Source: Eledone cirrhosa
Lineage: Eukaryota
DNA: 64,000 nt
Assembly: GCA_964016885.1 (NCBI GenBank)
Contig: OZ024742.1
Span: forward strand, 346,084,001 to 346,148,000
Reading direction: 5' to 3'
Shown here: positions 13,656-63,744 of the stretch, piece after piece
How positions within the stretch are numbered: position 1 is the first letter of the stretch
Layout: each line of letters opens with the position of its first letter
Notes under the pieces: generated by a model
What the model was told of the DNA's origin: nothing
Database searches by the model: none
Seen by the model: the letters and a program-made list of their open reading frames with translations, nothing else
Made by a program: the position numbers and the translations under genes

Positions 13656-13659
13656 CTAC

Positions 13660-14164
13660 GAACACACGATATCATAAAGAGCAAAAGACAACCTAAGTCA
13701 ATGAAAAACATCCTAACACATGCCAAAGTACTGCCAACCACAACAACGAAACCCACAGTAAAAAAATGCGATAGACCCAACTGTGGCATTTGCATCAACC
13801 TAATAGAGGGTTCGGAATTCTATTTCAAAGAAGGACAACGTTTTATAGTAAAACACAATTTCACATGCGCATCAGAAAATCTAATATATGTATTAACTTG
13901 CTCAGGTTGTCGAGAACAATACATAGGCCAGACCAAAACAGCCTCCGCCAACGCATGACTGTCCATAGATCCCAAATTAAAATACAGGAATACAGTAAAA
14001 TACGACTTAATGAACAGATTGATACCTGTGCCGCCCAAAATCATCCCAACTTCAGAATCTTTCCCCTCTACAGATTTAAAGTTATTGCCACCCACACCCA
14101 GCGCATCAGCAAGGAATCTTACTTTATTAACAAATACGGACCCCGTCTAAACACTTCACCCTAA
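13660..14164 (+). pseudogene. Penelope-like element GIY-YIG endonuclease fragment (frameshifted)
   Basis: CDRPNCGIC zinc motif, NFTCASENLIYVLTCSGCREQYIGQT, then RMTVHRSQI..ESYFINKYGPRLN in the next frame. Confidence 0.88.
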
Positions 14165-27700: not shown

Positions 27701-29670
27701 TTTAGCCGATGCATAATAGAGATGATTTAAGTCAGTAATGTTTATTTTGTTTGTGATGATAATGTTTTTGAGAATTATGTTAGTCTTGTGTATTATCTTT
27801 TGGTTCTGTTTGGAGTTCTGGATCTTAGGGAGGGTGTCTCGTTCCCCCATGTCAGTTTCTTTCATTTTCATCCATTCGATCATAATTTCATCCTTCAAGT
27901 TGGCAAGTTCATTCTCATTCATTTCTTTATCATTTACGATCTCATTATTTTCATTTGGAGTTTCATCCTGAGCATGCACTCCCTCCACTTTTTCGCTCCT
28001 TTCTTTAATTTGTTCTGTTGCCAGTGATTCCGCCCCAACTCTGGGATTCGAAGTGTTACAGTTTACCTCGTTTTCACTGACACGTGCTTCATTTTCCCTT
28101 CGCTGACTTTGTGCTACTAGCTTGATCTGATCAATTTCTATATCAGTTAGTAACTTTTTTCTTACAATATTTCTTCGTATATTGGCTAGTTTGTTACTGT
28201 CAATATAGCCTCTGTTTTCGGGATGTTTCTTTTTCCAGTTGATATATGTTTGCTCTGTATTCGATGTATTTGATGGGTAGTACATGGCAGTATAGAAAGC
28301 CTCAAGGACTTCTTTATTATCTTCCCTTGACCATTTTTCTCTCTTTTTCTTTGGATTTCTTGGTGGTGAGCATGGAGGGCCAACAGTAGGAGTATTCCGG
28401 TTATGGGAGGTCTCCAGCTCCGAAGTGATGGGAAGGTTTGAACCATTAGCTGATTTTTCGACCCCAGTCTGGTTCCTCTCTGAGGGACGCGGCCCTTTTT
28501 TACCCGGGTGACGGCCGATCCGGTATGAGATTTCATCATTAGACATCTACTTTATTTTGTCACGTTTTATCCTTATCCGCCAAGGGGTAATCTTTTCGTG
28601 TTACCACTTCTAGAACGAGTGTCAACCAAGACTAGAGGGGTCGTTCTCCCCTAGAGACATGGCTATTCCCCGCCGGCCGCCATCCCGGTATTTCTTGGTC
28701 ACGGGGTTTTATTTTTGTTGTTTTTTTTTAAATTGTTATTATCATGAGTGGTTCCTTAATGTGAGCATTGCGTGGCTTAAGAATGAAATTATTAATAATT
28801 GTCTCCACTCCAGGGACAAGGCCAGCAATCACCCAGTGCATTACAATAATATAATATACTTTTTGTTGTAGTTGGCTGTTATTGCTGCTGGCTATGTCGG
28901 TGGTGGTGCCGGGGCTTTTTATATTGTTGGTGAGGAAGGGGTGAGCCAGCAGTCCCATAATTGTTGATGTAGACGTTTGTCCGTGGCAAGGTCACCAAGT
29001 CAATCTATTTATATCTTTTGCTAGCCTCTCTCTTGTCTAGTGCTACCACCACCTTCCCTTTTCTCTCTCAAGTTAACAGGGGAATAGTGTCAGTAGCATT
29101 GAATGAGTGGTGGCGGCGATGATGGATGTGGTGGAATGGTGGCAGCGGTGGTGTTGTGGTTACTGATATAGTATCTATGAGTTTGTGTTCGTATGTTTAA
29201 TATATATTTTCATTATATTTTGTGTTGACATATTCCCGTAAAATTTGAATTAAACATTTTTTTAAATTTGAGACAATAATAATAGTAATTATTATTATGA
29301 TGCCGGTGAAGTTGCCGTTATATTTAGTGTGATGGGATAGGTAGTGTATCAAGTTTCTGGTGTTGGTGAAATTGAAATTGCCGCTGTTCTATATAGTGTA
29401 GACAGAGGGTGTTTTGTTCCATTTATAACCATTTTCTTTTTTTGAATACAAAATATATCATACAAAATTGAATATTTGAGCGATACAACAATATAATATG
29501 GATACAACAATATAATATGGATCCGAAACTTTATGGGACCTCATTCGGTGCCTTTATGCAACATTTGTGCTAAGAATTGTTCTTTCACAATTGATTTAAA
29601 TATGTTAAAAATCAAAAAACTTACGGGAGCAATTTCGTGACGTTCTACCACCTCGTGCGTCTTCTTCCCT
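24755..29670 (-). mobile_element. Apparently full-length R4/Dong-like non-LTR retrotransposon
   Basis: Single long RT-RLE ORF, ~1.1-kb upstream region ending at a TAA/GAA tract, short 3'UTR ending at (TAA)n; 5' boundary inferred. Confidence 0.88.
24896..28546 (-). CDS. 1216-aa reverse transcriptase + CCHC finger + restriction-like endonuclease (R4/Dong clade)
   Basis: NYRPITCL, DYKKAFDS, QGDSLSPLLF, FYMDD, YKYLG; CRVC..ETIDHIISMC; RHD; NRPDI..LIDMSVP..KLSKY; uninterrupted. Confidence 0.95.
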   Translation of the reverse strand: MSNDEISYRIGRHPGKKGPRPSERNQTGVEKSANGSNLPITSELETSHNRNTPTVGPPCSPPRNPKKKREKWSREDNKEVLEAFYTAMYYPSNTSNTEQTYINWKKKHPENRGYIDSNKLANIRRNIVRKKLLTDIEIDQIKLVAQSQRRENEARVSENEVNCNTSNPRVGAESLATEQIKERSEKVEGVHAQDETPNENNEIVNDKEMNENELANLKDEIMIEWMKMKETDMGERDTLPKIQNSKQNQKIIHKTNIILKNIIITNKINITDLNHLYYASAKVTTHLCGVKMKKQRNSHKKSTWQDNINRQINLLRSDIEILTNYKVGEHVKQTKLRKLKKKYSIRSTCDIDMLIETIKQKVSAKAARIRRFEKRSRFYKDNNMFKNNQRNFYRKIGKSTITAKSIPPKEEVQEFWEKIWAEEKVHNIHAPWIDRQMKETAHLEEQTWENITVEQLRLALRKTSKWKSPGKDKIQNFWINAFTESHELLAQLYNEIVKEPEKIPSWLVNGITFLLPKNDETNNPKNYRPITCLTTMYKILTSVLTEYTYDHLITNDLFPIEQKGCKRGSYGCKDQLLVNKMILEDCHNRHKNLSIAWIDYKKAFDSLPHSWIEKCLEIFKISPVVRRFLSFSMRTWRTTLLLNSETKSLEAGEVNINCGIFQGDSLSPLLFCIALIPLSKMLNETKHGYRVYDKTINHLFYMDDLKLFAKNDEQLQGLLSTVKQFSDDIKMEFGLDKCAKATFTRGKLLKSSDINLDRGNVIRELDQEQTYKYLGVCEGDGIKHSTMRERIRKECYRRVRAILRTELNARNRIDAINTLAIPVVTYSYNVINWSSTEIRRLDTKIRKFLTMHRMHHPKADIDRIYLPRKEGGRGLIQLDIALKTATIGLSTYLRESHDWMIKLVLKHESTKRSYSITKDAQRYSNGLQISEVPFTAEMENTEKAKQVKVTAKKELLQKLAKKWQEKPLYGKYPERANNPDVDKTLTHQWLASSGLKSETEGLIISAQDQCLPTKNYQANIIKNGCSPLCRVCKKQPETIDHIISMCSPIAPTEYLNRHDRAAQYIHWIMCKHFDLPHQKNWWEHQPLPILEKDHISILWNFSIQTDRKIDANRPDIILKDFQRRVCLLIDMSVPIDKNVSIKTFEKLSKYKDLEIEIGKMWKLRTKTIPVVVGALGMIPKGSNDYLSQIPGNPRIGEIQKIVLMGTAHILRKILSI

Positions 29671-38490: not shown

Positions 38491-38550
38491 ATATGCTTCA
38501 TTATATATATATATATATAGTTATGTAATAAACAACATACGGTAATTATA

Positions 38551-38607
38551 TCATTTACCAGTGGTTTCTTGAAAGCAAACAAATTTTGCTTTCTATCATC
38601 AGAATGA
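38551..38607 (-). ncRNA. Type-I hammerhead ribozyme downstream of a Penelope ORF remnant
   Basis: TCATT CTGATGA ta GAAAGCAAA atttg TTTGCTTTC aa GAAA CCA c TGG TA AATGA; all core bases intact. Confidence 0.85.
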
Positions 38608-38713
38608 AAAAAATCCTGGTGTATTTTTTGACATTGGATTTTAAAAACAAAAATATAATCTATATGAAAGTGAGGCTGGAAAAGGGAGAAGGAAAGGAAA
38701 AATAAACACACAT

Positions 38714-38774
<61 letters not shown>

Positions 38775-38789
38775 CATACACACACGCAT

Positions 38790-39285
38790 CTAATTTACCC
38801 GTATGTTCTATTTTAGCATGTTGGTAGATTACAGATGATTCTTTACTATCTTGAAGGTCTCGCTAGTGTTCATTTATCCGTTCCCCTACACTACGAGCTG
38901 TCTCACCTATGTACACTATATTTTTGTCTCTACATTGTCCTTCAGTACATCTTATGCTATATACTACATTTCTAGTTTTACAGTTAATATGGGGGCTTAA
39001 TTTACAGGTTATACATTTCTTATCTATACAGGGGGGTCTTTGAAAAGGGTATGTCTTGCTAATAAGTGTTTTTATGGAGGTACCTGGTCTTTCTACTATC
39101 TTAATATTGAGTTTATGTTTATCTAGGGCCCTTCTAAATTTGTAAGCTAATTCACCTCTAGGGGTTGTATCGATGAACATTACACTCTGGTATTTATTGC
39201 TATCATACCATGAGTTTATTCTATTAGCCTTATTCCTAGTTCTTTCTATTCTATTCCAAATATTCAACCCTATAACTTCAACAGG
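38790..39285 (-). pseudogene. Penelope-like GIY-YIG endonuclease remnant
   Basis: SVMFIDTTPRGEL, IKIVERPG, C..C..C, NCKTRNVVYSIRC..VYIGETARSVGERINEH. Confidence 0.88.
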
Positions 39286-39554
39286 GGTTACAGGCCCATG
39301 TATACACATGCGCACAAACACAGATACGCACGCAAATACTTTCTATTTCTCATGCACACACACACACACGCATATACATATTTTAGGTGGCATACTCCCG
39401 AAAGAGAAGTAGGAGCACCATTTTGACATACGGAGTTTCTAGAACATTTGAAAACCTGGCGGAGCCTATTACCTCTCCAGGCTTGAATACAGCAGATTTC
39501 TTCTAGTGAAGGATAGCGAGGTGGAGAATGGAAGTGAGAAAGAGATATAGTGGA

Positions 39555-42452: not shown

Positions 42453-42809
42453 AATCTTACTGTCTCTCTTTCTTATGATTACCTCTACCAAAGTTCCCAC
42501 TAACTTTCCCCATCCCCATCCGCTTTGACCAAAAATATTTTACATTGAAAGCTGCAGTGAGGCAACAGTTTGAAGTGTGCCTTACCAACACAGTTACAGG
42601 CAACAATTCAAGGTAACTGAGTAGCAACATTTTGATAAATGTGGCACCAACACAATTACAGGAAACATTTCAAAGTAACTGAGTAGCAACTTTTAGTAAA
42701 TGTGACATCAAAGCAACTGAGTAGCAACTTTTTGGTGCAAACAGCATCAATAAAGACAACATGTCAAAGATACCGAGCAGCAACATTTTGATGCGTTCAG
42801 CACCAACAC

Positions 42810-45800
42810 ATCGATTGTGTAGCACCAACACACCAACTATGTAGTACCAACACACCAACTGTTTAGTACCAACACAACAACTGTGTAGTACCAATACACC
42901 AACTGTTTAGTACCAACACACCAACTGTGTAGTACCAACACACCAACTGTTTAGTACCAACACACAACTGTGTAGTACCAACACACCAACTATGTAGTAC
43001 GAACACACCAACTGTTTAGTACCAACACAACAACTGTGTAGTACCAATACACCAGCTGTGTATCACCAACACACCAACTGTGTAGTACCAACACACTAAC
43101 TGTGTAGTACCAACACACCAACTGTGTAGTACCAATACACCAGCTGTGTATCACCAACACACCAACTGTGTAGTACCAACACACTAACTGTGTAGTACCA
43201 ACACACCAACTGTGTAGTACCAACACACCAACTGTGTATCACCAACACACCAACTGTGTAGTACCAATACACCAGCTGTGTATCACCAACACACCAAATA
43301 TGTAGTACCAATACACTAACTGTGTAGTACCAACACACCAACTGTGTAGTACCAACACACCAACTGTGTAGCAGCAACACACCAACTGTTTAGTACCAAC
43401 TGTGTATAACCAACACACCAACTGTGTAGTACAAACTGTGTAGCACCAACACACAAACTGTGTAGTACCAACACACCAACTGTGTAGTACCAACTGTGTA
43501 GAACCAATGCACCAACTGTGTAGTACCAACGCACCAACTGTTTAGTACCAATACACCAACTGTATAGTACCAACACACCAATTGTGTAGTACCAACACAC
43601 GAACTGTGTAGTACCAACAAACCAGCTCTGTAGTACCAACACACCAACTGTTTAGTACTAATGACCAGCTGTATAGTACCAACACACCAACTGTGTAGTA
43701 CCAAGAGACGAACTGTGTATCACCAACACACCAACTGTTTAGTACCAACACACCAGCTGTGTAGTACCAACACACCAATTGTCTAGTACCAACACACCAA
43801 CTGTGTAGTATCAACACACCAACTGTGTAGTACCAACGTACCAACTGTGTAGTACCAACACACCAGCTGTGTAGTACCAACACACCAATTGTGTAGCGCC
43901 AACACACCAACTGTTTAGTACCAACTGTATAGTACCAACACACCAACTGTGTAGCACCAACACACCAACTGTCTAGAACCAATACACCAGCTGTGTAGTA
44001 CCCATACACCACCTGTGTAGTACCAACACACCAACTGTGTAGTACCAACACACAAACTGTGTAGTACCATCACACCATCTGTGTAGTACCAACACACCAA
44101 CTGTGTAGTACCAACACACCAACTGTGTAGGACCAACACACCAACTGTGTAGCACCAACACACCAACTGTTTACTACCAATACACCAGCTGTGTAGTACC
44201 ACCACACCAGCTGTGTAGTACCAACATATCAACTGTGTAGAACCAACACCAACTGTTTAGTACCAACACATCAACTGTGTAGTACCATCACACCAACTGT
44301 GAAGTACCAACACACCAACTGTGTAGTACCAACACACCAACTGTGTAGAACCAACACACCAACTGTGTAACACCAACTGTGTAGTACCTACTGTGTAGAA
44401 CCAACGCACCAACTGTGTAATACCAACACACCAACAGTTTAGTACTAATACACGAGCTGTATAATACCAACACACCAACTGTTTAGTACCAACACACCAG
44501 CTGTGTAGTACCAACACAACAGCTGTATAGTACCAATACACCAACTGTGTAGTTCCAACACACCAACTGTGTAGTACCAACACACCAACTGTCTAGTACC
44601 AACACACCAACTGTCTAGTATAAACACACGAATTGTGTAGTACCAACACACTAACTGTCTAGTACCAACACATCAACTGTATAGTACCAACACACCAACT
44701 GTGTAGCACCAACACACCAACTGTTTAGAACCAACACACCAGCTGTGTAGTACCGACACACAACCTGTGTAGTACCAACACACCAACTGTGTAGTACCAA
44801 CACACTAACTGTTTAGTACCAACACACCAACTGTGTAGTACCAACACACCAGCTGCGTAGTACCAACACACCAACTGTGTAGCACCAACACACCAACTGT
44901 TTCGTACCACTGTGTAGTACCAACACACCAGCTGTGTAGTACCAACACACCAACTGTGTAGCACCAACACACCAACTGTTTAGTACCAACTGTATAGTAC
45001 CAACACACCAACTGTGTAGTACCAACACACCAACTGTTTAGAACCAATACACCAGCTGTGTAGTACCGACAGACCAGCTGTGTAGTACCAACACACCAAC
45101 TGTGTAGTACCAACACACCAAATGTTTAGTACCAACACACCAACTGTGTAGTACCATCACACCATCTGTGTAGTACCAACACACCAAATGTGTAGTACCA
45201 ACACACCAACTGTGTAGTACCAACACACCAACTCTGTAGTACCAACACACCAACTGTGTAGCACCAAAACACCAACTGTTTAGTACCAATACACCAGCTG
45301 TGTAGTACCAACACATCAACTGTGTAGAACCAACATATCAACTGTGTAGTACCGACACACCAACTGTTTAGTACCAACACATCAACTGTGTAGTACCATC
45401 ACACCATCTGTGTAGTACCAACACACCAACTGTGAAGTACCAACACACCAACTGTGTAGTACCAACACACCAACTGTGTAGCACCAACACACCAACTGTT
45501 TGGTACCAACACACCAACTTTGTTGTACCAACACAGCAACTGTTTAGTACCAACACACCAACTGTGTAGTACCAACACACCAACTATGTAGTACCAACAC
45601 ACAAATTGTTTAGTACCAGCACACCAACTGTGTAGTACCAATACACCAACTGTATAGTACCAACTCACCAATTGTGTATCACCAACACACCAACTGTGTA
45701 GTACCAACACACCAACTGTGTAGTACCAACACACTAACTGTGTAGTACCAACACACCAACTGTGTAGTACCAACACACCAACTGTGTATCACCAACACAC

Positions 45801-48800
45801 CAACTGTGTAGTACCAATACACCAGCTGTGTATCACCAACACACCAAATATGTAGTACCAATACACTAACTGTGTAGTACCAACACACCAACTGTGTAGT
45901 ACCAACACACCAACTGTGTAGCAGCAACACACCAACTGTTTAGTACTAACTGTGTATAACCAACACACCAACTGTGTAGTACAAACTGTGTAGCACCAAC
46001 ACACAAACTGTGTAGTACCAACACACCAACTGTGTAGTACCAACTGTGTAGAACCAATGCACCAACTGTATAGTACCAACACACCAACTGTTTAGTACCA
46101 ATACACCAGCTGTATAGTACCAACACACCAATTGTGTAGTACCAACACACGAACTGTGTAGTACCAACACACCAGCTCTGTAGTACCAACACACCAACTG
46201 TTTAGTACTAATGACCAGCTGTATAGTACCAACACACCAACTGTGTAGTACCAAGAGACGAACTGTGTATCACCAACACACCAACTGTTTAGTACCAACA
46301 CACCAGCTGTGTAGTACCAACACACCAACTGTCTAGTACCAACACACCAACTGTGTAGTATCAACATACCAACTGTGTAGTACCAACGTACCAACTGTGT
46401 AGTACCAACACACCAGCTGCGTAGTACCAACACACCAATTGTGTAGCGCCAACACACCAACTGTTTAGTACCAACTGTATAGCACCAACACACCAACTGT
46501 CTAGAACCAATACACCAGCTGTGTAGTACCAACACACCACCTGTGTAGTACCAACACACCAACTGTGTAGTACCAACACACCAACTGTGTAGTACCATCA
46601 CACCATCTGTGTAGTACCAACACACCAACTGTGTAGTACCAACACACCAACTGTGTAGCACCAACACACCAACTGTTTACTACCAATACACCAGCTGTGT
46701 AGTACCACCACACCAGCTGTGTAGTACCAACATATCAACTGTGTAGAACCAACACACCAACTGTTTAGTACCAACACATCAACTGTGTAGTACCATCACA
46801 ACATCTGTGTAGTACCAACACACCAACTGTGAAGTACCAACACACCAACTGTGTAGTACCAACACACCAACTGTGTAGAACCAACACACCAACTGTGTAA
46901 CAACCAACTGTGTAGTACCTACTGTGTAGAACCAACGCACCAACTGTGTAGTACCAACACACCAACAGTTTAGTACTAATACACCAGCTGTATAATACCA
47001 ACACACCAACTGTTTAGTACCAACACACCAGCTGTGTAGTACCAACACAACAACTGTGTAGTACCAATACACCAACTGTGTAGTTCCAACACACCAACTG
47101 TGTAGTACCAACACACCAACTGTCTAGTATAAACACACGAATTGTGTAGTACCAACACACTAACTGTCTAGTACCAACACATCAACTGTATAGTACCAAC
47201 ACACCAACTGTGTAGCACCAACACACCAACTGTTTAGTACCAACACATCAACTGTGTAGTACCATCACACCATCTGTGTAGTACCAACACACCAACTGTG
47301 AAGTACCAACACACCAACTGTGTAGTACCAACACACCAACTGTGTAGAACCAACACACCAACTGTGTAACACCAACTGTGTAGTACCTACTGTGTAGAAC
47401 CAACGCACCAACTGTGTAGTACCAACACACCAAAAGTTTAGTACTAATACACCAGCTGTATAATACCAACACACCAACTGTTTAGTACCAACACACCAAC
47501 TGTGTAGTACCAACACACAAACTGTGTAGTACCATCACACCATCTGTGTAGTACCAACACACCAACTGTGTAGTACCAACACACCAACTGTGTAGGACCA
47601 ACACACCAACTGTGTAGCACCAACACACCAACTGTTTACTACCAATACACCAGCTGTGTAGTACCACCACACCAGCTGTGTAGTACCAACATATCAACTG
47701 TGTAGAACCAACACCAACTGTTTAGTACCAACACATCAACTGTGTAGTACCATCACACCAACTGTGAAGTACCAACACACCAACTGTGTAGTACCAACAC
47801 ACCAACTGTGTAGAACCAACACACCAACTGTGTAACACCAACTGTGTAGTACCTACTGTGTAGAACCAACGCACCAACTGTGTAATACCAACACACCAAC
47901 AGTTTAGTACTAATACACGAGCTGTATAATACCAACACACCAACTGTTTAGTACCAACACACCAGCTGTGTAGTACCAACACAACAGCTGTATAGTACCA
48001 ATACACCAACTGTGTAGTTCCAACACACCAACTGTGTAGTACCAACACACCAACTGTCTAGTACCAACACACCAACTGTCTAGTATAAACACACGAATTG
48101 TGTAGTACCAACACACTAACTGTCTAGTACCAACACATCAACTGTATAGTACCAACACACCAACTGTGTAGCACCAACACACCAACTGTTTAGAACCAAC
48201 ACACCAGCTGTGTAGTACCGACACACAACCTGTGTAGTACCAACACACCAACTGTGTAGTACCAACACACTAACTGTTTAGTACCAACACACCAACTGTG
48301 TAGTACCAACACACCAGCTGCGTAGTACCAACACACCAACTGTGTAGCACCAACACACCAACTGTTTCGTACCACTGTGTAGTACCAACACACCAGCTGT
48401 GTAGTACCAACACACCAACTGTGTAGCACCAACACACCAACTGTTTAGTACCAACTGTATAGTACCAACACACCAACTGTGTAGTACCAACACACCAACT
48501 GTTTAGAACCAATACACCAGCTGTGTAGTACCGACAGACCAGCTGTGTAGTACCAACACACCAACTGTGTAGTACCAACACACCAAATGTTTAGTACCAA
48601 CACACCAACTGTGTAGTACCATCACACCATCTGTGTAGTACCAACACACCAAATGTGTAGTACCAACACACCAACTGTGTAGTACCAACACACCAACTCT
48701 GTAGTACCAACACACCAACTGTGTAGCACCAAAACACCAACTGTTTAGTACCAATACACCAGCTGTGTAGTACCAACACATCAACTGTGTAGAACCAACA

Positions 48801-51800
48801 TATCAACTGTGTAGTACCGACACACCAACTGTTTAGTACCAACACATCAACTGTGTAGTACCATCACACCATCTGTGTAGTACCAACACACCAACTGTGA
48901 AGTACCAACACACCAACTGTGTAGTACCAACACACCAACTGTGTAGCACCAACACACCAACTGTTTGGTACCAACACACCAACTTTGTTGTACCAACACA
49001 GCAACTGTTTAGTACCAACACACCAACTGTGTAGTACCAACACACCAACTATGTAGTACCAACACACAAATTGTTTAGTACCAGCACACCAACTGTGTAG
49101 TACCAATACACCAACTGTATAGTACCAACTCACCAATTGTGTATCACCAACACACCAACTGTGTAGTACCAACACACCAACTGTGTAGTACCAACACACT
49201 AACTGTGTAGTACCAACACACCAACTGTGTAGTACCAACACACCAACTGTGTATCACCAACACACCAACTGTGTAGTACCAATACACCAGCTGTGTATCA
49301 CCAACACACCAAATATGTAGTACCAATACACTAACTGTGTAGTACCAACACACCAACTGTGTAGTACCAACACACCAACTGTGTAGCAGCAACACACCAA
49401 CTGTTTAGTACTAACTGTGTATAACCAACACACCAACTGTGTAGTACAAACTGTGTAGCACCAACACACAAACTGTGTAGTACCAACACACCAACTGTGT
49501 AGTACCAACTGTGTAGAACCAATGCACCAACTGTATAGTACCAACACACCAACTGTTTAGTACCAATACACCAGCTGTATAGTACCAACACACCAATTGT
49601 GTAGTACCAACACACGAACTGTGTAGTACCAACACACCAGCTCTGTAGTACCAACACACCAACTGTTTAGTACTAATGACCAGCTGTATAGTACCAACAC
49701 ACCAACTGTGTAGTACCAAGAGACGAACTGTGTATCACCAACACACCAACTGTTTAGTACCAACACACCAGCTGTGTAGTACCAACACACCAACTGTCTA
49801 GTACCAACACACCAACTGTGTAGTATCAACATACCAACTGTGTAGTACCAACGTACCAACTGTGTAGTACCAACACACCAGCTGCGTAGTACCAACACAC
49901 CAATTGTGTAGCGCCAACACACCAACTGTTTAGTACCAACTGTATAGCACCAACACACCAACTGTCTAGAACCAATACACCAGCTGTGTAGTACCAACAC
50001 ACCACCTGTGTAGTACCAACACACCAACTGTGTAGTACCAACACACCAACTGTGTAGTACCATCACACCATCTGTGTAGTACCAACACACCAACTGTGTA
50101 GTACCAACACACCAACTGTGTAGCACCAACACACCAACTGTTTACTACCAATACACCAGCTGTGTAGTACCACCACACCAGCTGTGTAGTACCAACATAT
50201 CAACTGTGTAGAACCAACACACCAACTGTTTAGTACCAACACATCAACTGTGTAGTACCATCACAACATCTGTGTAGTACCAACACACCAACTGTGAAGT
50301 ACCAACACACCAACTGTGTAGTACCAACACACCAACTGTGTAGAACCAACACACCAACTGTGTAACAACCAACTGTGTAGTACCTACTGTGTAGAACCAA
50401 CGCACCAACTGTGTAGTACCAACACACCAACAGTTTAGTACTAATACACCAGCTGTATAATACCAACACACCAACTGTTTAGTACCAACACACCAGCTGT
50501 GTAGTACCAACACAACAACTGTGTAGTACCAATACACCAACTGTGTAGTTCCAACACACCAACTGTGTAGTACCAACACACCAACTGTCTAGTATAAACA
50601 CACGAATTGTGTAGTACCAACACACTAACTGTCTAGTACCAACACATCAACTGTATAGTACCAACACACCAACTGTGTAGCACCAACACACCAACTGTTT
50701 AGTACCAACACATCAACTGTGTAGTACCATCACACCATCTGTGTAGTACCAACACACCAACTGTGAAGTACCAACACACCAACTGTGTAGTACCAACACA
50801 CCAACTGTGTAGAACCAACACACCAACTGTGTAACACCAACTGTGTAGTACCTACTGTGTAGAACCAACGCACCAACTGTGTAGTACCAACACACCAAAA
50901 GTTTAGTACTAATACACCAGCTGTATAATACCAACACACCAACTGTTTAGTACCAACACACCAGCTGTGTAGTACCAACACAACAACTGTGTAGTACCAA
51001 TACACCAACTGTGTAGTTCCAACACACCAACTGTGTAGTACCAACACACCAACTGTCTAGTATAAACACACGAATTGTGTAGTACCAACACACTAACTGT
51101 CTAGTACCAACACATCAACTGTATAGTACCAACACACCAACTGTGTAGCCCCAACACACCAACTGTTTAGAACCAACACACCAGCTGTGTAGTACCGACA
51201 CACAAGCTGTGTAGTACCAACACACCAACTGTGTAGTACCAACACACTAACTGTTTAGTACCAACACACCAACTGTGTAGTACCAACACACCAGCTGCGT
51301 AGTACCAACACACCAACTGTTTCGTACCACTGTGTAGTACCAACACACCAGCTGTGTAGTACCAACACACCAACTGTTTCGTACCACTGTGTAGTACCAA
51401 CACACCAACTGTGTAGCACCAACACACCAACTGTTTCGTACCACTGTGTAGTACCAACACACCAGCTGTGTAGTACCAACACACCAACTGTGTAGCACCA
51501 ACACACCAACTGTTTAGTACCAACTGTATAGTACCAACACACCAACTGTCTAGTACCAACACACCAACTGTTTAGAACCAATACACCAGCTGTGTAGTAC
51601 CGACAGACCAGCTGTGTAGTACCAACACACCAACTGTGTAGTACCAACACACCAAATGTTTAGTACCAACACACCAACTGTGTAGTACCATCACACCATC
51701 TGTGTAGTACCAACACACCAAATGTGTAGTACCAACACACCAACTGTGTAGTACCAACACACCAACTCTGTAGTACCAACACACCAACTGTGTAGCACCA

Positions 51801-54800
51801 ACACACCAACTGTTTAGTACCAATACACCAGCTGTGTAGTACCAACACATCAACTGTGTAGAACCAACATATCAACTGTGTAGTACCGACACACCAACTG
51901 TTTAGTACCAACACATCCACTGTGTAGTACCATCACACCATCTGTGTAGTACCAACACACCAACTGTGAAGTACCAACACACCAGCTGTGTAGTACCAAC
52001 ATACCAACTGTGTAGCACCAACACACCAACTGTTTGGTACCAACACACCAACTGTGTTGTACCAACACAGCAACTGTTTAGTACCAACACACCAACTGTG
52101 TAGTACCAACACACCAACTGTGTAGTACCAACACACCAATTGTTTAGTACCAGCACACCAATTGTGAAGTACCAATACACCAACTGTATAGTACCAACTC
52201 ACCAATTGTGTATCACCAACACACCAACTGTGTAGTACCAACACACCAACTGTGTAGTACCAACACACCAACTGTTTAGTACCAACACACCAACTGTGTA
52301 GTAGCAATACACCAACTGTGTAGTACCAACACACCAATTGTGTATCACCAACACACCAACTGTGTAGTACCAATACACCAGCTGTGTATCACCAACACAC
52401 CAACTGTGTAGTACTAACGCACTAACTGTGTAGTACCAACACACCAACTGTGTAGTACAAACACACCAACTGTGTATCACCAACACACCAACTGTGTAGT
52501 ACCAATGCACCAGCTGTGTATCACCAATACACCAACACTGTAGTACCAATACACTAACTGTGTAGTACCAACACACCAACTGTGTACTACCAACACACCA
52601 GCTGCGTAGTACCAACACACCAACTGTGTATCACCAACACACCAACTGTTTTGTACCAATACACCAGATGTGTAGAACCAACACACCAGCTGTGTAGTAC
52701 CAACACACCAACTGTGTAGTACCAACACACCAACAGTTTAGTACCAACACACCAACTGTGTAGTACCATCACACCAGCTGTGTAGTTCCAACACACCAAC
52801 TGTGTAGTACCAACACACGATCTGTGTAATACCAACACACCAACTATGTAGTACCAACTGTGTAGTACCAACACACCAACTGTATAGTACCAACACACCA
52901 ACTGTTTAGTACCAACACACCATCTGTGTAGTACCAACACACCAACAGTGTAGTACTAACACACCAACAGTGTAGTATCAACACACCAACTGTGTATTAC
53001 CAACGCACCGACTGTGTAGTACCAACACACCATCTGTGTAGTACCAACACACCAGCTGTGTAGTACCAACACACCAACTGTGTAGTACCAACACACGAAT
53101 TGTGTATCACCAATACACCAGCTGTGTAGTACCAACACACCAGCTGTGTAGTACCAACACACCAACTGTGTAGTACCAACACACCAGCTGTGTAGTACCA
53201 ACACACCAACTGTGTAGCACCAAAACACCAACTGTTTACTACCAACTGTGTAGCACCAACACACCAACAGTTTAGTACCAACTGTGTAGCACCAACACCA
53301 ACTGTTAGTACCAATACACCAACTGTGTAGTACCACCACACCAGCTGTGTAGTACCAACATACCAACTGTGTAGTACCATCACGCCAATGTTTAGTATCA
53401 ACACACCAACTGTGAGCACCAACACACCAACTGTGTAGTACCAACGCACCAAGTGTGTAGTACCAACACACCAACTGTTTAGTACCAACACACCAACTGT
53501 GTAGTACCAATACACCAACTGTGTAGTACCAACTCACCAATTGTGTATCAACAACACACCAACTGTGTAGTACCAACACACCAACTGTGTAGTACCAACA
53601 CACCAACTGTATAGTACTGACACACCAACTGTGTAATACCAATACACCAAATGTGTAGTACCAACACACCAGTTGTGTATCACCAACACACGAACTGTGT
53701 AGTCCAAATATACCAGCTGTGTATCACCAACACACCAACTGTGTAGTACCAACACAATAACTGTGTAGTACCAACACACCAACTGTGTAGTACCAACACA
53801 CCAACTGTGTATCACCAACACACCAGCTGTGTAGTACCAATATACCAGCTGTGTATCACCAACACACCAAATCTGTAGTACCAATACACTAACTGTGTAG
53901 TACCAATACACCAACAGTGTAGCACCAACACACCAACTGTTTAGTACCAACTGTGTAGTACCAACTGTGTAGCACCAACACACGAACTGTGTAGTACCAA
54001 CACACCAACTGTGTAGTACCAACTGTATAGAACCAACTCACCAACTGTGTAGTACCAACACACCAACAGTTTAGTACTAATACACCAGCTGTATAATACC
54101 AACACACCAATTGTGTAGTACCAACACACGAACTGTGTATCACCAACACACCAACTGTTTAGTACCAACACACCAGCTGTGTAGTACCAACACACCAACG
54201 GTGTTGTACCAACACATCAACTGTGTAGTTCCAACATACCAACTGTGTAGAACCAACACACCAACTGTGTAGTATCAACACACCAACTGTGTAGTACCAA
54301 CACATCAACTGTATAGTACCAGCACACAAACTGTGTAGCGCCAACACACCAACTGTTTAGAACCAAATCACCAGCTGTGTAGTACCAACACACGAGCTGT
54401 GTAGTATCAACACACCAACTGTGTAGTACCAACACACCAACTGTTTAGTACCAACACACCAAATGTGTAGTACCAACACACCAACTGTGTAGTACCAACA
54501 CACCAGCTGCGTAGTACCAACAGACGAACTGTGTATCACCAACACACCAACTGTTTAGTACCAACACACCAACTGTTTAGTACCAACACAACAACTGTGT
54601 AGTACCAACGCACCAAGTGTGTAGTACCAACACACCAACTGTTTAGTACCAACACACCAACTGTGTAGTACCAACACACCAACTGTGTATCACCAACACA
54701 CCAACTCTGTAATACCAATACACTAATTCTGTAGTACCAACACACCAACTGTGTAGTACCAACACACCAACTGTGTAGCACCAACACACCAACTGTGTAG

Positions 54801-57172
54801 CACCAACACACCAACTTTTTAGTACCAACTGTGTAGTACCAACTGTGTAGCACCAACAAACCAACTGTGTTGTACCAACACACCAACTGTGTAGTATCAG
54901 CACGCCAATTGTGTAGTACCAACACAGCAACTGTATAGTACCAACACACCAACTGTGTAGTACCAACACACCCACTGTTTCGTACCAACACACCAACAGT
55001 GTAGTACCAACACACCAGCTGCGTAGTACAAACACACCAACTGTGTAGCACCAACACACCAACTGTTTAGAACCAATATACCAGCTGTGTAGTACCAACA
55101 AACGATCTGTGTAGTACCAACACACCAACTGTGTAGTACCAACACACCAACTGTTTAGTACCAATACACCAGCTGTGTAGTACCAACACACAAGCTGTGT
55201 AGTACCAACACACCAACTGTGTAGTACCAACACACCAACTGTTTAGTACCAACACACCAACTGTGTAGTACCATCACACCAGCTGTGTAGTACCAACACA
55301 CCAACTGTGTATTACCAACACACCAACTGTGTAGTACCAACACACCAACTGTGTAGTACCAACACACCAACTGTGTAGCACCTACACACCAACTGTTTCG
55401 TACCAACACACCAACTGTGTAGAACCAACGCACCAACTGTGTAGTACCAACACACCAACTCTTTTGTACAAACACAACAACTGTGTAGTACCAACACACC
55501 AACTGTGTAGTACCAACACACCAACTGTGTAGTACTAATACACCAACTGTGTAGTACCAATACACCAACTCTGTAGTACCAACACACCAACTGTGTAGTA
55601 CCAATACACCAGTTATGTAGTACCAACACACCAACTGTTTAGTACCAACACACCAACTGTGTAGTACCAACACACCAACTGTTTAATACCTACACAACAA
55701 CTGTGTAGTACCAACACACCAACTGTATAGTACCAACACACCAACTGTGTCGTACAAACCCACCAACTGTGTAGTACCAATACACCAGCTGTGTAGTACC
55801 AACACACCAACTGTGTAGTACTAATACACCAACTTTGTAGTACCAATACACCAACTGTGTAGTACCAACAAACCAACTGTTTCGTACCAACACACCAACT
55901 GTGTAGTACCAACACACCAGCTGCGTAGTACCAACACACCAACTGTGTAGCACCAACACACCAACTGTTTAGTACCAACTGTGTAGCACCAACACACCAA
56001 CTGTTTAGTACCAATACACCAGCTGTGTAGTACCAACACACCAACTGTGTAGCACCAACACACCCACTGTTTCGTACCACTGTGTAGTACCAACACACCA
56101 GCTGTGTAGTACCAACACACCAACTGTGTAGCACCAACAAACCAACTGTTTAGAACCAATACACCAGCTGTGTAGTACCGACACACCAGCTGTGTAGTAC
56201 CAACACACCAACTATTTAGTACCAACACACCAACTGTTTAGTACCATCACACCATCTGTGTAGTACCAACACACCAACTGTGTAGTACCAACAGACCAAC
56301 TGTGTAGTACCAACACACCAACTGTTTAGTACCAACACACCAACTGTGTAGGACCAACACACCAACTGTATAGTACCAACACACCAACTGTGTAGTATCA
56401 ATACACCAACTGTGTAGTACTAATACACTAACTGTGTAGTACCAACACACCAACTGTGTAGTACCAACACACCAACTGTGTAGCACCAACAGACCAACTG
56501 TGTAGTACCAACACACCAACTGTTTAGTACCAACACACCAACTGTGTAGAACCAACACACCAACTGTATACTACCAACACACCAACTGTGTAGTACCAAC
56601 ACACCAACTGTATAGTACCAACACACCAACTGTGTAGTACTAATACACTAACTGTGTAGTACCAACACACCAACTGTGTAGTACCAACACACTAACTGTG
56701 TAGTACCAACACACCTAACTGTGTAGTACCAATACACCAACTGCGTAGTACCAATACACCAACTGTGTAGTACCAACACACCAACTGTGTAGTACCAACC
56801 CACCAACTGTGTAGTACCAATACACCAACTGTGTAGTACCAACACACCAACTGTATAGTACCAACACACCAACTGTGTAGTACTAATACACTAACTGTGC
56901 ATTACCAACACACCAACTGTGTAGTACCAACACACTAACTGTGTAGTACCAACACACCAACTGTGTAGTACCAATACACCAACTGTGTAGTACCAACACA
57001 CCAACTGTATAGTACCAACACACTAACTGTGTAGTACCAACACACCAACTGTGTAGTACCAATACACCAACTGTGTAGTACCAATACACCAACTGTGTAG
57101 TACCAATACACCAACTGTGTAGCACCAACACACCAACTGTGTAGTACCAATACACCAGCTGTGTATCACCAA
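42810..57172. repeat. 22-bp satellite (GTAGTACCAACACACCAACTGT)n, ~14.4 kb
   Basis: Continuous 22-mer with occasional 14-bp deletion units. Confidence 0.98.
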
Positions 57173-57179
57173 TACGCCG

Positions 57180-59408
57180 GGTGTGTATCCGTGTATATGT
57201 GTATCTGTGTATCTGTGTATCCGTATATCCGTGTATCCGTGTATTCGTGTATCCGTGTATCTGTGTATCCCTGTATCCGTGTATCTCTGTATCCGTGTAT
57301 CCCTGTATCCGTGTATTCGTGTATCCGTGTATATGTGTATCCGTGTATCCGTGTATCTCTGTATCTGTGTATCTGTGTATCTGTGTATCCGTGTATCCGT
57401 GTATTCGTGTATCTGTGTATCTGTGTATCCGTGTATTCGTGTATCTGTGTATCTGTGTATCCGTGTATCCGTGTATCTGTGTATCCGTGTATCTGTGTAT
57501 CTGTGTATCCGTGTATCTGTGTATCCGTGTATCTGTGTATCTGTGTATCCGTGTATCTGTGTATCTGTGTATCCATGTATCCGTGTATCCGTGTATCCGT
57601 GTATTCGTGTATTCGTGTATATGTGTATCCGTGTATCCGTGTATCTCTGTATCTGTGTATCTGTGTATCCGTGTATCCGTGTATCCGTGTATATGTGTAT
57701 CTGTGTATCCGTGTATTCGTGTATCTGTGTATCTGTGTAACCGTGTATCCGTGTATCTGTGTATCCGGGTATCTGTGTATTTGTGTATCCGTGTATCTGT
57801 GTATCCGTGTATCTGTGTATCTGTGTATCCGTGTATCTGTGTATCTGTGTATCGGTGTATCTGTGTATCCGTGTATCTGTGTATCTGTGTATCCGTGTAT
57901 CTGTGTATCCGTGTATCCGTGTATCCGTGTATCTGTGTATCTGTGTATCCGTGTATCCGTGTATCCGTGTATCTGTGTATCCGTGTATCTGTGTATCCGT
58001 GTATCTGTGTATCCGTGTATCTGTGTATCCGTGTATCCGTGTATCCGTGTATCTGTGTATCCGTGTATCTGTGTATCTGTGTATCCGTGTAGTGTATCTG
58101 TGTATCCGTGTATCCGTGTATCCGTGTATCCGTGTATCCGTGTATCCGTGTATCCGTGTATCCGTGTATCTGTGTATCCGTGTATCCGTGTATCTGTGTA
58201 TCCGTGTATCTGTGTATCTGTGTATCCGTGTATCTGTGTATCCGTGTATCCGTGTATCCGTGTATCTGTGTATCCGTGTATCCGTGTATCCGTGTATCCG
58301 TGTATCCGTGTATCCGTGTATCTGTGTATCCGTGTATCCGTGTATCCGTGTATCCGTGTATCCGTGTATCTGTGTATCCGTGTATTTTTGTATCCGTGTA
58401 TTCGTGAATCCGTGTATCCGTGTATCTTTGTATCCGTGTATCCGTGTATCCGTGTATCTGTGTATCTGTGTATCTGTGTATCTGTGTATCCGTGTATCTG
58501 TGTGTATCCGTGTATCCGTGTATCTGTGTATCTGTGTATCTGTGTATCCGTGTATCTGTGTGTATCCGTGTATCCGTGTATCCGTGTATCCGTGTATCTG
58601 TGTAACCGTGTATTTTTGTATCCGTGTATTCGTGAATCCGTGTATCCGTGTATCTTTGTATCCGTGTATCCGTGTATCCGTGTATCTGTGTATCTGTGTA
58701 TCTGTGTATCTGTGTATCCGTGTATCTGTGTGTATTCGTGTATCCGTGTATCTGTGTATCTGTGTATCTGTGTATCTGTGTATCCGTGTATCTGTGTGTA
58801 TCCGTGTATCCGTGTATCTGTGTATCTGTGTATCTGTGTATCCGTGTATCTGTGTGTATCCGTGTATCCGTGTATCTGTGTATCTGTGTATCTGTGTATC
58901 TTTGTATCCGTGTATCCATGTATCTGTGTATCCGTGTAGCCGTGTATCCGTGTATCTGTGTATCCGTGTATCTGATTATCCGTGTATCTGTGTATCCGTG
59001 TATCTGTGTATCCGTGTATCCGTGTCTCCGTGTATCTGTGTATCCGTGTATTTTTGTATCCGTGTATTCGTGAATCCGTGTATCCGTGTATCTTTGTATC
59101 CGTGTATCTGTGTATCCGTGTCTCCGTGTCTCCGTGTATCTGTGTATCTGTGTATCTGTGTATCTGTGTATATGCGTATCCGTGTATCCGTGTATCCGTG
59201 TATCTCTGTATCCGTGTATCTGTGTATCTGTGTATCCGTGTATCCGTGTCTCCGTGTATCTGTGTATCTGTGTATCCGTGTATCTGTGTATCCGTGTATC
59301 CTTGTTTCTGTGTATCTGTGTATCCGTGTATCCGTGTTTCTGTGTATCTGTGTATCCGTGTATCCGTGTATCCGTGTATCTGTGTATCCGTGTATCCGTG
59401 TATCCGTG
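57180..59408. repeat. 8-bp satellite (GTGTATC[C/T])n
   Basis: Continuous octamer repeat; long YTDT/RVSVY ORFs are artefacts. Confidence 0.97.
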
Positions 59409-60472: not shown

Positions 60473-60567
<95 letters not shown>

Positions 60568-60913
60568 AATTGAAACAAAATGAAAACGAAATTTCATTTC
60601 TCACTCTTAGTATGGCACTTACTTAAATGTAAGTATGCATGTTTACAAACGAACAAAGCGACGTTATAATAAGCGCCGCTAAACTGATACGTGCATATAT
60701 GTATGTGTACCTGTATGCATATGTATGTATATATGTATATATATATATATATATGTGCATGCTACTGTACGTCTGTATACATATATGTATGTACGCATAC
60801 ATGCATACTTACATTTAAGTAAGTGCCATACTAAGAGTGAGAAATGAAATTTCGTTTTCATTTTGTTTCAATTTATCGTTTTCGGTATGCTTGACCGATT
60901 TAACTCACTCAAT

Positions 60914-60962
60914 ATGCAAATTAGGCTGCTCAGCCGTTAATTTTCATAAGGAAAGTATATAC
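60914..60962 (+). promoter_or_regulatory. Octamer ATGCAAAT + TAATTTTCATA + TATA-like block (repeated at 61390 and 63283)
   Basis: Conserved between families A and B; promoter function is inferred only. Confidence 0.45.
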
Positions 60963-60994
60963 TTTCGAACGTTCAACTATCTGGCAGATGGGTA

Positions 60995-61039
60995 AACGGT
61001 GCTGATGATAGCTAACAAGCTTGAAACTAGTACATCGTT
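60995..61039 (+). ncRNA. Type-I hammerhead ribozyme (family A, unit 1)
   Basis: AACGGTG CTGATGA t AGCT aaca AGCT t GAAA CTAG TA CATCGTT; palindromic ACTAGT stem III; GUA site. Confidence 0.87.
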
Positions 61040-61470
61040 CCTGTGTCAGTGTTGAACAAAAAGGTGACGTGGTTGCCTTAACACCGTATGGCATAAATTC
61101 AGGCTGTTCAGTTTGTTTACAAACGAACAAAGCGACGTTATATTAAGCGCCGCTAAACTGATACGTGCATATATGTATGTGTACCTGTATGCATATGTAT
61201 GTATATATGTATATATATATATATATATATGTGCATGCTACTGTACGTCTGTATACATATATGTATGTACGTATACATGCATACTTACATTTAAGTAAGT
61301 GCCATACTAAGAGTGAGAAATGAAATTTCGTTTTCATTTTGTTTCAATTTATCGTTTTCGGTATGCCTGACCGATTTAACTCACTCAATATGCAAATTAG
61401 GCTGCTCAGCCGTTAATTTTCATAAGGAAAGTATATACTTTCGAACGTTCAACTATCTGGCAGATGGGTA

Positions 61471-61515
61471 AACGGTGCTGATGATAGCTAACAAGCTTGA
61501 AACTAGTACATCGTT
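61471..61515 (+). ncRNA. Type-I hammerhead ribozyme (family A, unit 2)
   Basis: Identical to 60995-61039, 476 bp downstream. Confidence 0.87.
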
Positions 61516-61750
61516 CCTGTGTCAGTGTTGAACAAAAAGGTGACGTGGTTGCCTTAACACCGTATGGCATAAATTCAGGCTGTTCAGTTTGTTTACAAAC
61601 GAACAAAGCGACGTTATAATAAGCACCGCTAAACTGATACGTGCATATATGTATGTGTACCTGTATGTATATATGTATATATATATATATATGTGCATGC
61701 TACTGTACGTCTGTATACATATATGTATGTACGTATACATGCATACTTAC

Positions 61751-61828
<78 letters not shown>

Positions 61829-61833
<5 letters not shown>

Positions 61834-61943
61834 AACGAGTAGGACCCCGACGGCTGAGCTCAAGCCGTTTCAACAGCTAATTCAGTCCAGAATTAGCCGT
61901 CGAAACGGCTTGAGCTCAGCCGTCGGGGTCCTACTCGTTCCTA
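61829..61943. repeat. ~115-bp near-perfect palindrome
   Basis: ATAGGAACGAGTAGGACCCCGACGGCTGAGCTCAAGCCGTTTC mirrored around GCTAATTC-agtcca-GAATTAGC. Confidence 0.92.
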
Positions 61944-62024
61944 TTACCCACTCTACTACCCTAAGTATTGAGTACTTTGGAGCGTTGTGGTCCACCTGGT
62001 TCCTTACCACATTCCTTCGTTATA

Positions 62025-62055
<31 letters not shown>

Positions 62056-62103
62056 TAGTTTTGCGAGGTTTTTTATATGAAATCGTGTGTCGAAACAGAT
62101 ATT

Positions 62104-62739
62104 GTTATATTTGGGGAGGGTCATATTTGCGTAATATTGCCAGAATTAATAACAGAACACACTCACTGTTTGGTTGGTTTTCGCTTCTCGCTGTCTTTTA
62201 TATATATATATCTGCGATCTAACTTACTCGGTCCTCAATGTTGCCATTGACTGACCGGCGGTCAAAAATAATACAGATACAATATAGACACAAACACATA
62301 TATATATAGTTTACATAATTTACATAAATCTTTCGTTGCACATCTGCAACATCGTCAGTGGTGTTATATTCATTGTTCCTCCTGTTGTGTTGTATGTCTA
62401 CGCCATTCAGTCTGTCTATAGACAGACTGAACAAAAAAAATGGCGTAGACATACAACACAACAGGAGGAACAATGAATATAACACCACTGACGATGTTGC
62501 AGATGTGCAACGAAAGATTTATGTAAATTATGTAAACTATATATATATGTGTTTGTCTATATTGTATCTGTATTATTTTTGACCGCCGGTCAGTCAATGG
62601 CAACATTGAGGACCGAGTAAGTTAGATCGCAGATATATATATATAAAAGACAGCGAGAAGCGAAAACCAACCAAACAGTGAGTGTGTTCTGTTATTAATT
62701 CTGGCAATATTACGCAAATATGACCCTCCCCAAATATAA

Positions 62740-62740
<1 letters not shown>
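62104..62740. repeat. ~640-bp inverted repeat (~300-bp arms) with a central 24-bp palindrome
   Basis: 62104-62406 mirrors 62440-62740; spacer TCAGTCTGTCTATAGACAGACTGA + A-run. Confidence 0.92.
62481..62553 (+). ncRNA. Hammerhead-like motif (mirror copy at 62293-62365, minus strand)
   Basis: AACACCA CTGACGA t GTTGCA gatg TGCAAC GAAA; imperfect stem III; (AT) run between the UH site and the GTGTT stem-I strand. Confidence 0.6.
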
Positions 62741-62816
<76 letters not shown>

Positions 62817-62819
<3 letters not shown>

Positions 62820-63712
62820 CAATTAAGTTAAAAATGTACATCCATATATGTATACTGAAATACTAGTATGCATATGAATACACACACGTATACATATGTA
62901 GATGTACCAAGTCTTTCACTGGTTACTTTACTGTGAGTATCCAGCTATGCTGTATGTAAACACACAGACAAACCGGTTTTTAGAGTCATACTGGTTTTTG
63001 AGGAAACACCTTTCCTCTATTCTCCAGAAAGCCAGACAAGGAATTTTGAACTAGTTTCGTTGTTGTATGTAAACCAGTGAAAGACTTGGTACATCTACAT
63101 ATGTATACGTGTGTGTATTCATATGCATACTAGTATTTCAGTATACATATATGGATGTACATATTTAACTTAATTGTTTAAGCGTCAGTCATACAAAAGT
63201 GAGTTACAAACGAAACGAAATTTAATTTCGTTTCGTTATTTGTTTTTATCGTCTCCGTTGAACCGGTACGTACTCACACTCTATGCAAATTAGTCTGCCC
63301 ACTACTAATTTTCATAGAAAAAGCATATAACGATATGTGCTTTTACGATTCTCCAGAAAGGCCGGTAGATAGGTAAATATTGCTGATGAGTTGTAACAAC
63401 AACGAAACTAGTTCAATATTCCTTGTCTGGCTTTCTGGAGAATAGAGGAAAGGTGTTTCCTCAAAAGCCAGTATGACTCTAAAAACCGGTTTGTCTGTGT
63501 GTTTACATACAGAATAGCTGGATACTCACAGTAAAGTAACCAGTGAAAGACTTGGTACATCTACATATGTATACGTGTGTGTATTCATATGCATACTAGT
63601 ATTTCAGTATACATATATGGATGTACATTTTTAACTTAATTGTTTAAGCGTCAGTCATACAAAAGTGAGTTACAAACGAAACGAAATTTAATTTCGTTTC
63701 GTTATTTGTTTT

Positions 63713-63713
<1 letters not shown>
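62817..63713 (+). mobile_element. HHR-containing non-coding element, family B: 466-bp unit x1.4 with a 5' inverted partial copy
   Basis: AACCAGTGAAAGAC at 63072 and 63538; 62817-63066 is the reverse complement of ~63396-63645; flanked by (AT)n. Confidence 0.85.
63376..63420 (+). ncRNA. Type-I hammerhead ribozyme (family B)
   Basis: AATATTG CTGATGA GTTGT aaca ACAAC GAAA CTAG TT CAATATT; perfect stems I and II; palindromic ACTAGT. Confidence 0.9.

Positions 63714-63744
<31 letters not shown>

Follow-up and report, generated by a model that had tools for sequence, protein, structure and literature searches.

INTRODUCTION

Newt satellite 2 (Coats, Zhang and Epstein, 1994; Cremisi, 1992), one of the closest described systems to the DNA analysed here, is a tandem non-coding repeat that carries a type I hammerhead with a palindromic short stem III. 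Its promoter reportedly contains an octamer and a PSE. The promoter is internal and of the snRNA type, and has been shown experimentally to be used by Pol II (PMC2220036, PMC6765202); in the parts of the printed literature that were covered, this is the one case of an snRNA-type promoter in a hammerhead repeat. The Schistosoma Sm-alpha hammerhead SINE is also tandem, and there the internal promoter of an upstream unit transcribes the next unit (PMC6765202), but it is a Pol III promoter, in an element similar to tRNA-Gln-derived repeats (PMC2770079), and is not of the octamer/PSE type.

Metazoan non-LTR retrozymes are tandem arrays of low-GC monomers, with one type I hammerhead per unit, highly self-paired RNA and no real ORF, for which Penelope elements are the proposed helpers (PMC7229834; 10.64898/2026.07.22.740005). 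Every tissue examined is reported to transcribe animal retrozymes at a high level (PMC7229834). The main text of PMC7229834 (Cervera and de la Pena, 2020) uses the word promoter only for T7 constructs, and parts 1–3 of the 5 parts of 10.64898/2026.07.22.740005 (Li, Clavereau and Pollet, 2026) name no internal promoter. The Penelope-like elements themselves have pseudo-LTRs, characterized by an inverted 5' piece, a partial tandem, offset ends and insertion into (TA)n, with a hammerhead and a promoter inside the repeat (PMC8557442, PMC2377424). The promoter of Drosophila Penelope is TATA-less and LINE-like (PMC2377424).

Further background was drawn from PMC5460494, PMC2837043 and PMC6155905. 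A literature search, with most subscription journals and some supplements outside its coverage, returned neither a paper on octopus retrozymes nor an octopus or mollusc PSE.

Two related elements inserted in (TA)n repeats

The window, by which we mean the whole 64-kb stretch of DNA that was analysed, is animal repeat DNA, made up of satellites, LINE remnants and runs of (TA)n and (CA)n. Long strand-skewed satellites occupy 1–10066, 42802–57172 and 57183–59408, with periods of 13, 22 and 8 nt. An intact LINE ORF of 1216 aa (24896–28546, minus strand; RT domain, Pfam E 2.6e-29) lies between two Tx1-like LINE copies. For one LINE protein, the best named relative belongs to Argonauta hians, at 69% identity, which fits an octopod host.

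Two elements, here called A and B, lie near the end of the window. Element A consists of an inverted 5' piece (60565–60646, minus strand), which is the reverse complement of approximately 60795–60876 and abuts (TA)n at its outer end, followed by a direct arm (60640–61755, plus strand) in which a 476-nt non-coding monomer is repeated about 2.3 times in tandem; the right end of this arm is also at (TA)n. Element B has the same arrangement: an inverted 5' piece (62818–63066, minus strand; the reverse complement of 63396–63644), which spans the predicted cleavage site, and a direct arm (63072–63715, plus strand) built from a 466-nt monomer present in about 1.4 copies, again with both outer ends at (TA)n. 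Element A contains tandem hammerheads, while element B has one complete hammerhead and one inverted partial one. The monomers have a GC content of 0.30–0.34. Ten ATG ORFs of at least 60 aa overlap the region of the elements; all are short or derived from microsatellites, and none is a real ORF.

The outer ends fall at two homologous positions of the unit, 60817 and 60876 in A and about 63180 and 63249 in B. These two end positions recur in other copies of B, in 4 and 5 contigs of sequencing run X1, and tandem joins of B are present in runs X1 and X5. Both elements thus have the insertion anatomy described for Penelope-like elements (PMC8557442): an inverted 5'-truncated piece, a partial tandem, offset ends and a (TA)n target. 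They differ from those elements in having no RT/endonuclease ORF and in the offset of the ends, which is 59–69 nt as against 30–40. The combination of Penelope-type ends, hammerhead-bearing monomers and no real ORF fits non-LTR retrozymes, and judged from their sequences A and B are sister families of this known class of element. Their monomers are longer than the 170–400 nt of PMC7229834 but inside the 51–972 range of 10.64898/2026.07.22.740005. The integrated copies run unbroken through the hammerhead and the conserved block upstream of it (described below), from which it follows that the block belongs to the template that is copied. We infer that the copying is done by a Penelope enzyme. 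The insertion ends were at one stage taken as proof of a Pol III terminator, and this was dropped because priming on (TA)n explains the ends equally well.

Penelope-like remnants are also seen elsewhere in the window. One of them (38530–39342, minus strand) has a C-terminal GIY-YIG fragment with a type I hammerhead-like motif behind it (38565–38602). The GIY-YIG fragment matches Pfam weakly (E 0.002, below cutoff), and none of 100 candidates in a homolog search was a homolog of it. A second, frameshifted Penelope-like endonuclease remnant, with a CxxxxCxxC finger and a YIGQT motif, was recognized by eye at 13638–14164. Between the two elements, at the edge of (TA)n, there is a GC-rich, nearly perfect palindrome of 116 nt (61829–61944), with a predicted folding energy of −105 kcal/mol.

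Hammerhead motifs

For all three hammerhead motifs of A and B, the predicted fold is that of a type I hammerhead whose stem III is the palindrome ACTAGT; tandem non-coding organization, hammerhead type and short palindromic stem III are all as in newt satellite 2. In the first copy of A (60983–61049, plus strand), CTGATGA is at 61002 and GAAA at 61023, and cleavage is predicted after GTA, at 61032. The second copy of A is at 61459–61525 (plus strand). The motif of B is at 63364–63428 (plus strand), with its core at 63383 and predicted cleavage after GTT, at 63413. The core, stems I–III and the NUH triplet are all present, and stems I and II show compensatory changes between A and B. The Rfam HH9 model scores B at 38.6 bits (E 1.7e-7) and each A copy at 18.5 bits (E 0.5), all of these being below its gathering score of 52; in the window as a whole there are no Rfam matches at gathering level. 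Matches to miRNA families in the window were rejected as artefacts of palindromes or microsatellites.

The hammerheads vary within each family. In stem II of B, variants at 63391 (36%) and 63402 (27% of X1 depth) together convert a T-A pair to A-T, and in family A the free core position 61006 is variable (36%).

When the window was searched with a sequence-only model built from the three copies, the inverted arm of B was the only further member of the family detected. A third palindromic element in (TA)n, at 62019–62820, has a hammerhead-like core of the form CTGACGA..GAAA (62488 on the plus strand and 62331 on the minus strand), with no matching stem I or III. Near 62713 it also carries ACGCAAAT, an octamer with one mismatch, ahead of a C-rich run; TATAAAAA lies further along, in the left arm. 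This element is possibly a truncated third retrozyme family.

A conserved block upstream of the hammerheads

The first-pass annotation described a block common to the two families, consisting of ACTCAC, an octamer, CTGC.CA, the 11-mer TAATTTTCATA and a TATA-like segment, and located about 90–100 nt before CTGATGA. This consensus stands as first written. A motif search of the 64-kb window finds the exact octamer starting at 60914, 61390 and 63283, and the octamer precedes CTGATGA by 88 nt in family A and by 100 nt in B. All three copies of the block are real. However, the A copies with octamers at 60914 and 61390 are 97% identical over 656 nt and are therefore tandem duplicates, which leaves two independent cases. 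The block had also been placed before each ribozyme; this is correct for the three type I motifs, but the fourth hammerhead-like motif, that at 38565–38602, has no octamer upstream of it.

In the first copy of A, the ACTCAC segment is at 60903–60910 and the octamer (60914–60921) is contained in TATGCAAATTAG at 60913–60924, which is identical in A and B. TAATTTTCATA follows at 60938–60948, and TATA starts at 60956 within a hairpin at 60951–60966 (all plus strand). The block of the second copy of A, with the octamer at 61390, is at 61379–61442. The B block (63272–63344, plus strand) has ACTCAC at 63272, the octamer at 63283, the equivalent of TAATTTTCATA at 63306–63316, and a TATA hairpin at 63319–63344, with TATA at 63326.

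Alignment of the A block with B gives a score of 51, compared to a maximum of 23 across 500 shuffles, and so the homology is far above chance. The spacing from octamer to TATA is 42 bp in one family and 43 bp in the other. The distance from TATA to the start of the hammerhead (GG.AG) is unequal, being 27 nt in one family and 38 nt in the other, a difference of 11 nt. There are six further octamers elsewhere in the window.

Predicted RNA hairpins

The circular folds predicted for A and B contain the same series of helices, and the monomers fold much better than shuffled sequences (z-scores of −8.8 and −9.5 in the linear fold, each against 100 shuffles). Six of nine homologous helices, registered by hand, contain compensatory changes, among them the TATA hairpin, in which 2 of 6 pairs are changed; the earlier observation that the TATA-like segment lies within a predicted hairpin in A and B alike is thus borne out. 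All the named pieces of the block are predicted helix arms, except that CTGC.CA falls in a loop in B. ACTCAC is the predicted 3' arm of a long-range helix, pairing in the circular fold with GTGAG about 65 nt upstream (within GAGTGAG, 60835–60841, plus strand). TATGCAAATTAG pairs with TAATTTTCATA, the two being the 5' and 3' arms of one hairpin, with a single C.T mismatch common to A and B, and TAATTTTCATA is accordingly an inverted near-octamer with one mismatch.

The variants within each family also respect this hairpin. In about 54% of the family A depth in run X1, position 60942 is changed from T to A and position 60944 reads G; both lie within TAATTTTCATA. The two changes are found in 108 and 105 X1 contigs, and both are also present in one X4 contig; their equal shares suggest that they are linked. 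The double change repairs the C.T mismatch and opens an A.A mismatch, and takes the predicted energy from −8.9 to −11.9 kcal/mol. The reference and double-variant forms of TAATTTTCATA are each one base away from an inverted octamer. The only variant in the B block, at 63292, changes an A-U pair to G.U. No octamer variant was seen in X1 at 3% or above in A (7411 contigs) or at 2% or above in B (1179 contigs). The reading of the block as a set of RNA hairpins is well supported by the compensatory changes and the variants, within the limits of a predicted fold.

It might be that this is all the block does. It would then be an RNA-level element, made up of retrozyme hairpins and perhaps including a protein-binding stem with a required mismatch; the octamer would be a coincidence, and transcription would come from read-through or from elsewhere in the unit. 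Several observations fit: the sub-blocks are helix arms, the variants keep exactly one mismatch or wobble, the TATA stem covaries, and the block adjoins a recurrent insertion end, so that it is part of the copied RNA. The octamer itself arises by chance in 2–7% of shuffled monomers (200 of 3000, or 6.7%, for A, and 52 of 3000, or 1.7%, for B). Against this, a constraint on pairing usually permits compensation. The outer pairs of the octamer hairpin are identical between A and B in 10 cases out of 10, whereas 14 of the 48 pairs in the other eight helices are changed (P about 0.03, uncorrected for the nine helices). From the octamer through CTGC.CA, 18 of 20 nt are identical between A and B, although CTGC.CA is unpaired in B. 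The octamer-to-TATA spacing is also kept, and the newt repeat provides a precedent for a promoter. We therefore consider a purely RNA-level role unlikely, while giving it real weight.

Conservation between and within families

Because the bases of the block also form hairpins in the monomer, RNA pairing has to be controlled for in any argument from conservation. The homology of A and B extends over the whole monomer (59% identity with gaps, and 70% in aligned columns). The block is the best 59-column window, with 46 of 59 columns identical, and matches the catalytic region in its degree of conservation. The first-pass statement that neighbouring sequence diverges was overstated, since the homology covers the whole monomer and conservation equal to that of the best window is found in 22–40% of 5000 permutations, so that the excess is not significant; the permutation is however conservative, since the matches in the hammerhead and the block are themselves reshuffled.

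The first-pass annotation counted its promoter reading as refuted if the motif proved no more conserved across copies than its flanks, and within families this is what is seen. Family A has 24 variable sites in 361 nt, of which 3 fall in the 59 nt of the block, compared to 3.9 expected (P 0.43), and family B has 23 in 441 nt, of which 1 falls in the block, compared to 3.1 expected (P 0.16). These sites were taken from run X1, at thresholds of at least 3% (A) and at least 2% (B), with one window-private allele dropped in each family, and contig depth is a crude weight. X1 is the only deep run. Seven runs were mapped: X1 is deep in both families; X4 (97 contigs, A), X11 (26 contigs, B) and X5 (5 contigs, B) are thin; and X2, X23 and X7 gave only short AT-rich fragments or nothing on A and B, even though X2 and X7 have shares in the index. 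None of the runs listed for these families is recorded as RNA. With cover this thin outside X1, the index list of 15 organisms is no evidence of wide spread. In run X11, low-depth contigs on 63075–63545 carry clustered A>G (63123–63181) and T>C (63472–63504) changes, which are as would be expected for ADAR-type editing of dsRNA or for re-inserted edited copies.

The block had no match in metagenome, genome and viral contig collections. The hammerhead pattern was absent from viral contigs, and its two loci in genome contigs, both bacterial and having neither the fold nor an octamer, were judged to be chance matches. TATA combined with the U6 5' motif gave no loci in metagenome contigs.

A further explanation is that the block is simply residual homology: A and B have a common ancestor, and the block would be the stretch that happens to have changed least in a self-paired, AT-rich monomer. 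The permutation frequencies are as this explanation would have them, and within neither family is the block depleted of variable sites. An identical run of 12 nt turns up in 45% of permutations, and there is an identical run of 13 nt between A and B in the TA-rich arm. On the other side, the permutation test is conservative, and the best window is one that contains the exact octamer and an equally spaced TATA, conserved like the catalytic region. Residual homology is on balance rather improbable as the full explanation.

Position of a candidate PSE

If the block is a promoter of the snRNA type, the question is which part would be the PSE. The first-pass annotation proposed TAATTTTCATA, either with the adjacent TATA, as in a U6-type promoter, or as part of a TATA-less Pol II promoter, as in the newt. 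TAATTTTCATA is identical between A and B at 11 of 11 positions, it loosely resembles the invariant ATTC-CAA core of the Drosophila PSEA (PMC1761439), and newt satellite 2 is indeed transcribed by Pol II. However, the octamer arm and TAATTTTCATA are reverse complements of each other, and about 54% of the family A depth carries TAATTTTCATA changed at two sites. Its spacing is also wrong. From the start of TAATTTTCATA to the start of TATA is 18–20 bp in A and B, whereas PSEA to TATA in insect U6 genes is 33 bp start to start (PMC1761439), and neither family has a TATA 33 bp after TAATTTTCATA; for vertebrates, the spacer is 15–19 bp counted from the end of the PSE (PMC7949045). The proposal has not survived these comparisons well and is now improbable, and TAATTTTCATA is best read, from its sequence relationships, as the second arm of the hairpin. 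Another PSE candidate, some 170 nt further downstream (61083–61094), was also dropped, because it forms an arm of a long-range helix that covaries.

If the 33-bp distance is measured back from TATA, the PSE slot falls elsewhere. If the TATA at 60956 is of the U6 type, the slot would be at 60923–60943 (plus strand), on AG.CTGC.CA. Its 5' half is common to A and B and its 3' half is variable, which is the pattern of insect PSEAs (PMC1761439). The slot is defined from TATA, and its fit is therefore partly by construction, but the shared 5' half is not. The segment TAG.CTGC.CA adjoins the octamer, is partly unpaired and falls in this slot. By the same 33-bp geometry the candidate +1 would be just before the hammerhead and the octamer near −72, touching the PSE slot. 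The usual distal element is at −250 to −170 (PMC9652321). The human H1 promoter is a compact precedent, in which octamer, PSE and TATA all lie within 100 bp, but its octamer is near −99 to −90 (PMC7949045), and the arrangement in A and B would be tighter still.

Type 3/SNAPc promoters (human H1, U6 and 7SK, and insect U6) resemble A and B in combining an octamer with a PSE, for which A and B have a candidate slot, and a TATA; in A and B these lie inside some 75 bp. They differ in lying outside the transcript, whereas the block of A and B is copied with the element, and in A and B the octamer would abut the candidate PSE slot. The TATA of B is short and inside a stem. Runs of T4 in A and T5 in B precede the next block and hammerhead, and integrated copies are continuous across them, so that a promoter here would require either Pol III read-through or Pol II, as in the newt.

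The idea that the two arms are an inverted octamer pair, which would bind a POU dimer and stimulate a Penelope-like internal Pol II promoter without SNAPc, is in keeping with both forms of the 3' arm being one base from an inverted octamer and with the internal TATA-less Pol II promoter of Drosophila Penelope (PMC2377424), but it leaves CTGC.CA and the TATA spacing unexplained and is very improbable.

DISCUSSION

The reading that we prefer, to which we would give a little less than an even chance, is that the block consists of hairpins of the monomer RNA whose DNA doubles as a compact internal promoter of the snRNA type. An internal snRNA promoter in a hammerhead repeat has its precedent in newt satellite 2, as had been pointed out at the start. 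That precedent, the retention of the octamer and TAG.CTGC.CA without compensatory change, and the 42/43-bp spacing together favour a promoter. Against one stand the chance frequency of the octamer in shuffled monomers, the six octamers elsewhere in the window, the fact that pairing accounts for every conserved piece but CTGC.CA, the non-significant excess of conservation, an octamer that would touch the PSE slot, the unequal TATA-to-hammerhead distances, the short TATA of B within a stem, and the T runs. As a promoter the block is plausible, by analogy with the newt repeat, and unproven.

On the preferred reading, the octamer would be the binding site of an Oct/POU factor, the adjoining TAG.CTGC.CA (and not TAATTTTCATA) that of SNAPc, and the TATA 42–43 bp beyond the octamer that of TBP. 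The start site would fall about 29 bp past TATA, just before the hammerhead, at about 60985 in A and 63355 in B. If transcription then ran on through the following unit, the RNA would contain a fresh block and a second hammerhead, and self-cleavage would release monomers or circles. A Penelope-type RT/GIY-YIG enzyme, acting in trans, would then copy these into (TA)n sites, and each new copy would bring its own promoter with it.

The comparison with newt satellite 2 has limits. The newt promoter was demonstrated by experiment and uses Pol II, whereas that of A and B is a candidate recognized from sequence, has a TATA, and is in an invertebrate host. The TATA also distinguishes it from the promoter of Drosophila Penelope. 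In A and B, unlike newt satellite 2, every candidate promoter element is also a predicted helix arm. The more specific proposal, that octopod retrozymes have acquired, independently of newt satellite 2, an ultra-compact SNAPc promoter in which the octamer is fused to the PSE, TATA follows 42–43 bp on and all the elements are folded as helix arms, is a possibility that we hold more loosely, at perhaps one chance in three.

The 11-mer TAATTTTCATA is the wrong motif to seek in host snRNA genes. Were a mollusc to provide a second case of an snRNA-type promoter in a hammerhead repeat, this would point to a mechanism of general use and offer a target of 60 bp that can be mutated directly. If octopod retrozymes did acquire the ultra-compact promoter independently, self-promotion of the snRNA type would be a recurring solution among animal hammerhead retrotransposons, and would explain their constitutive expression.
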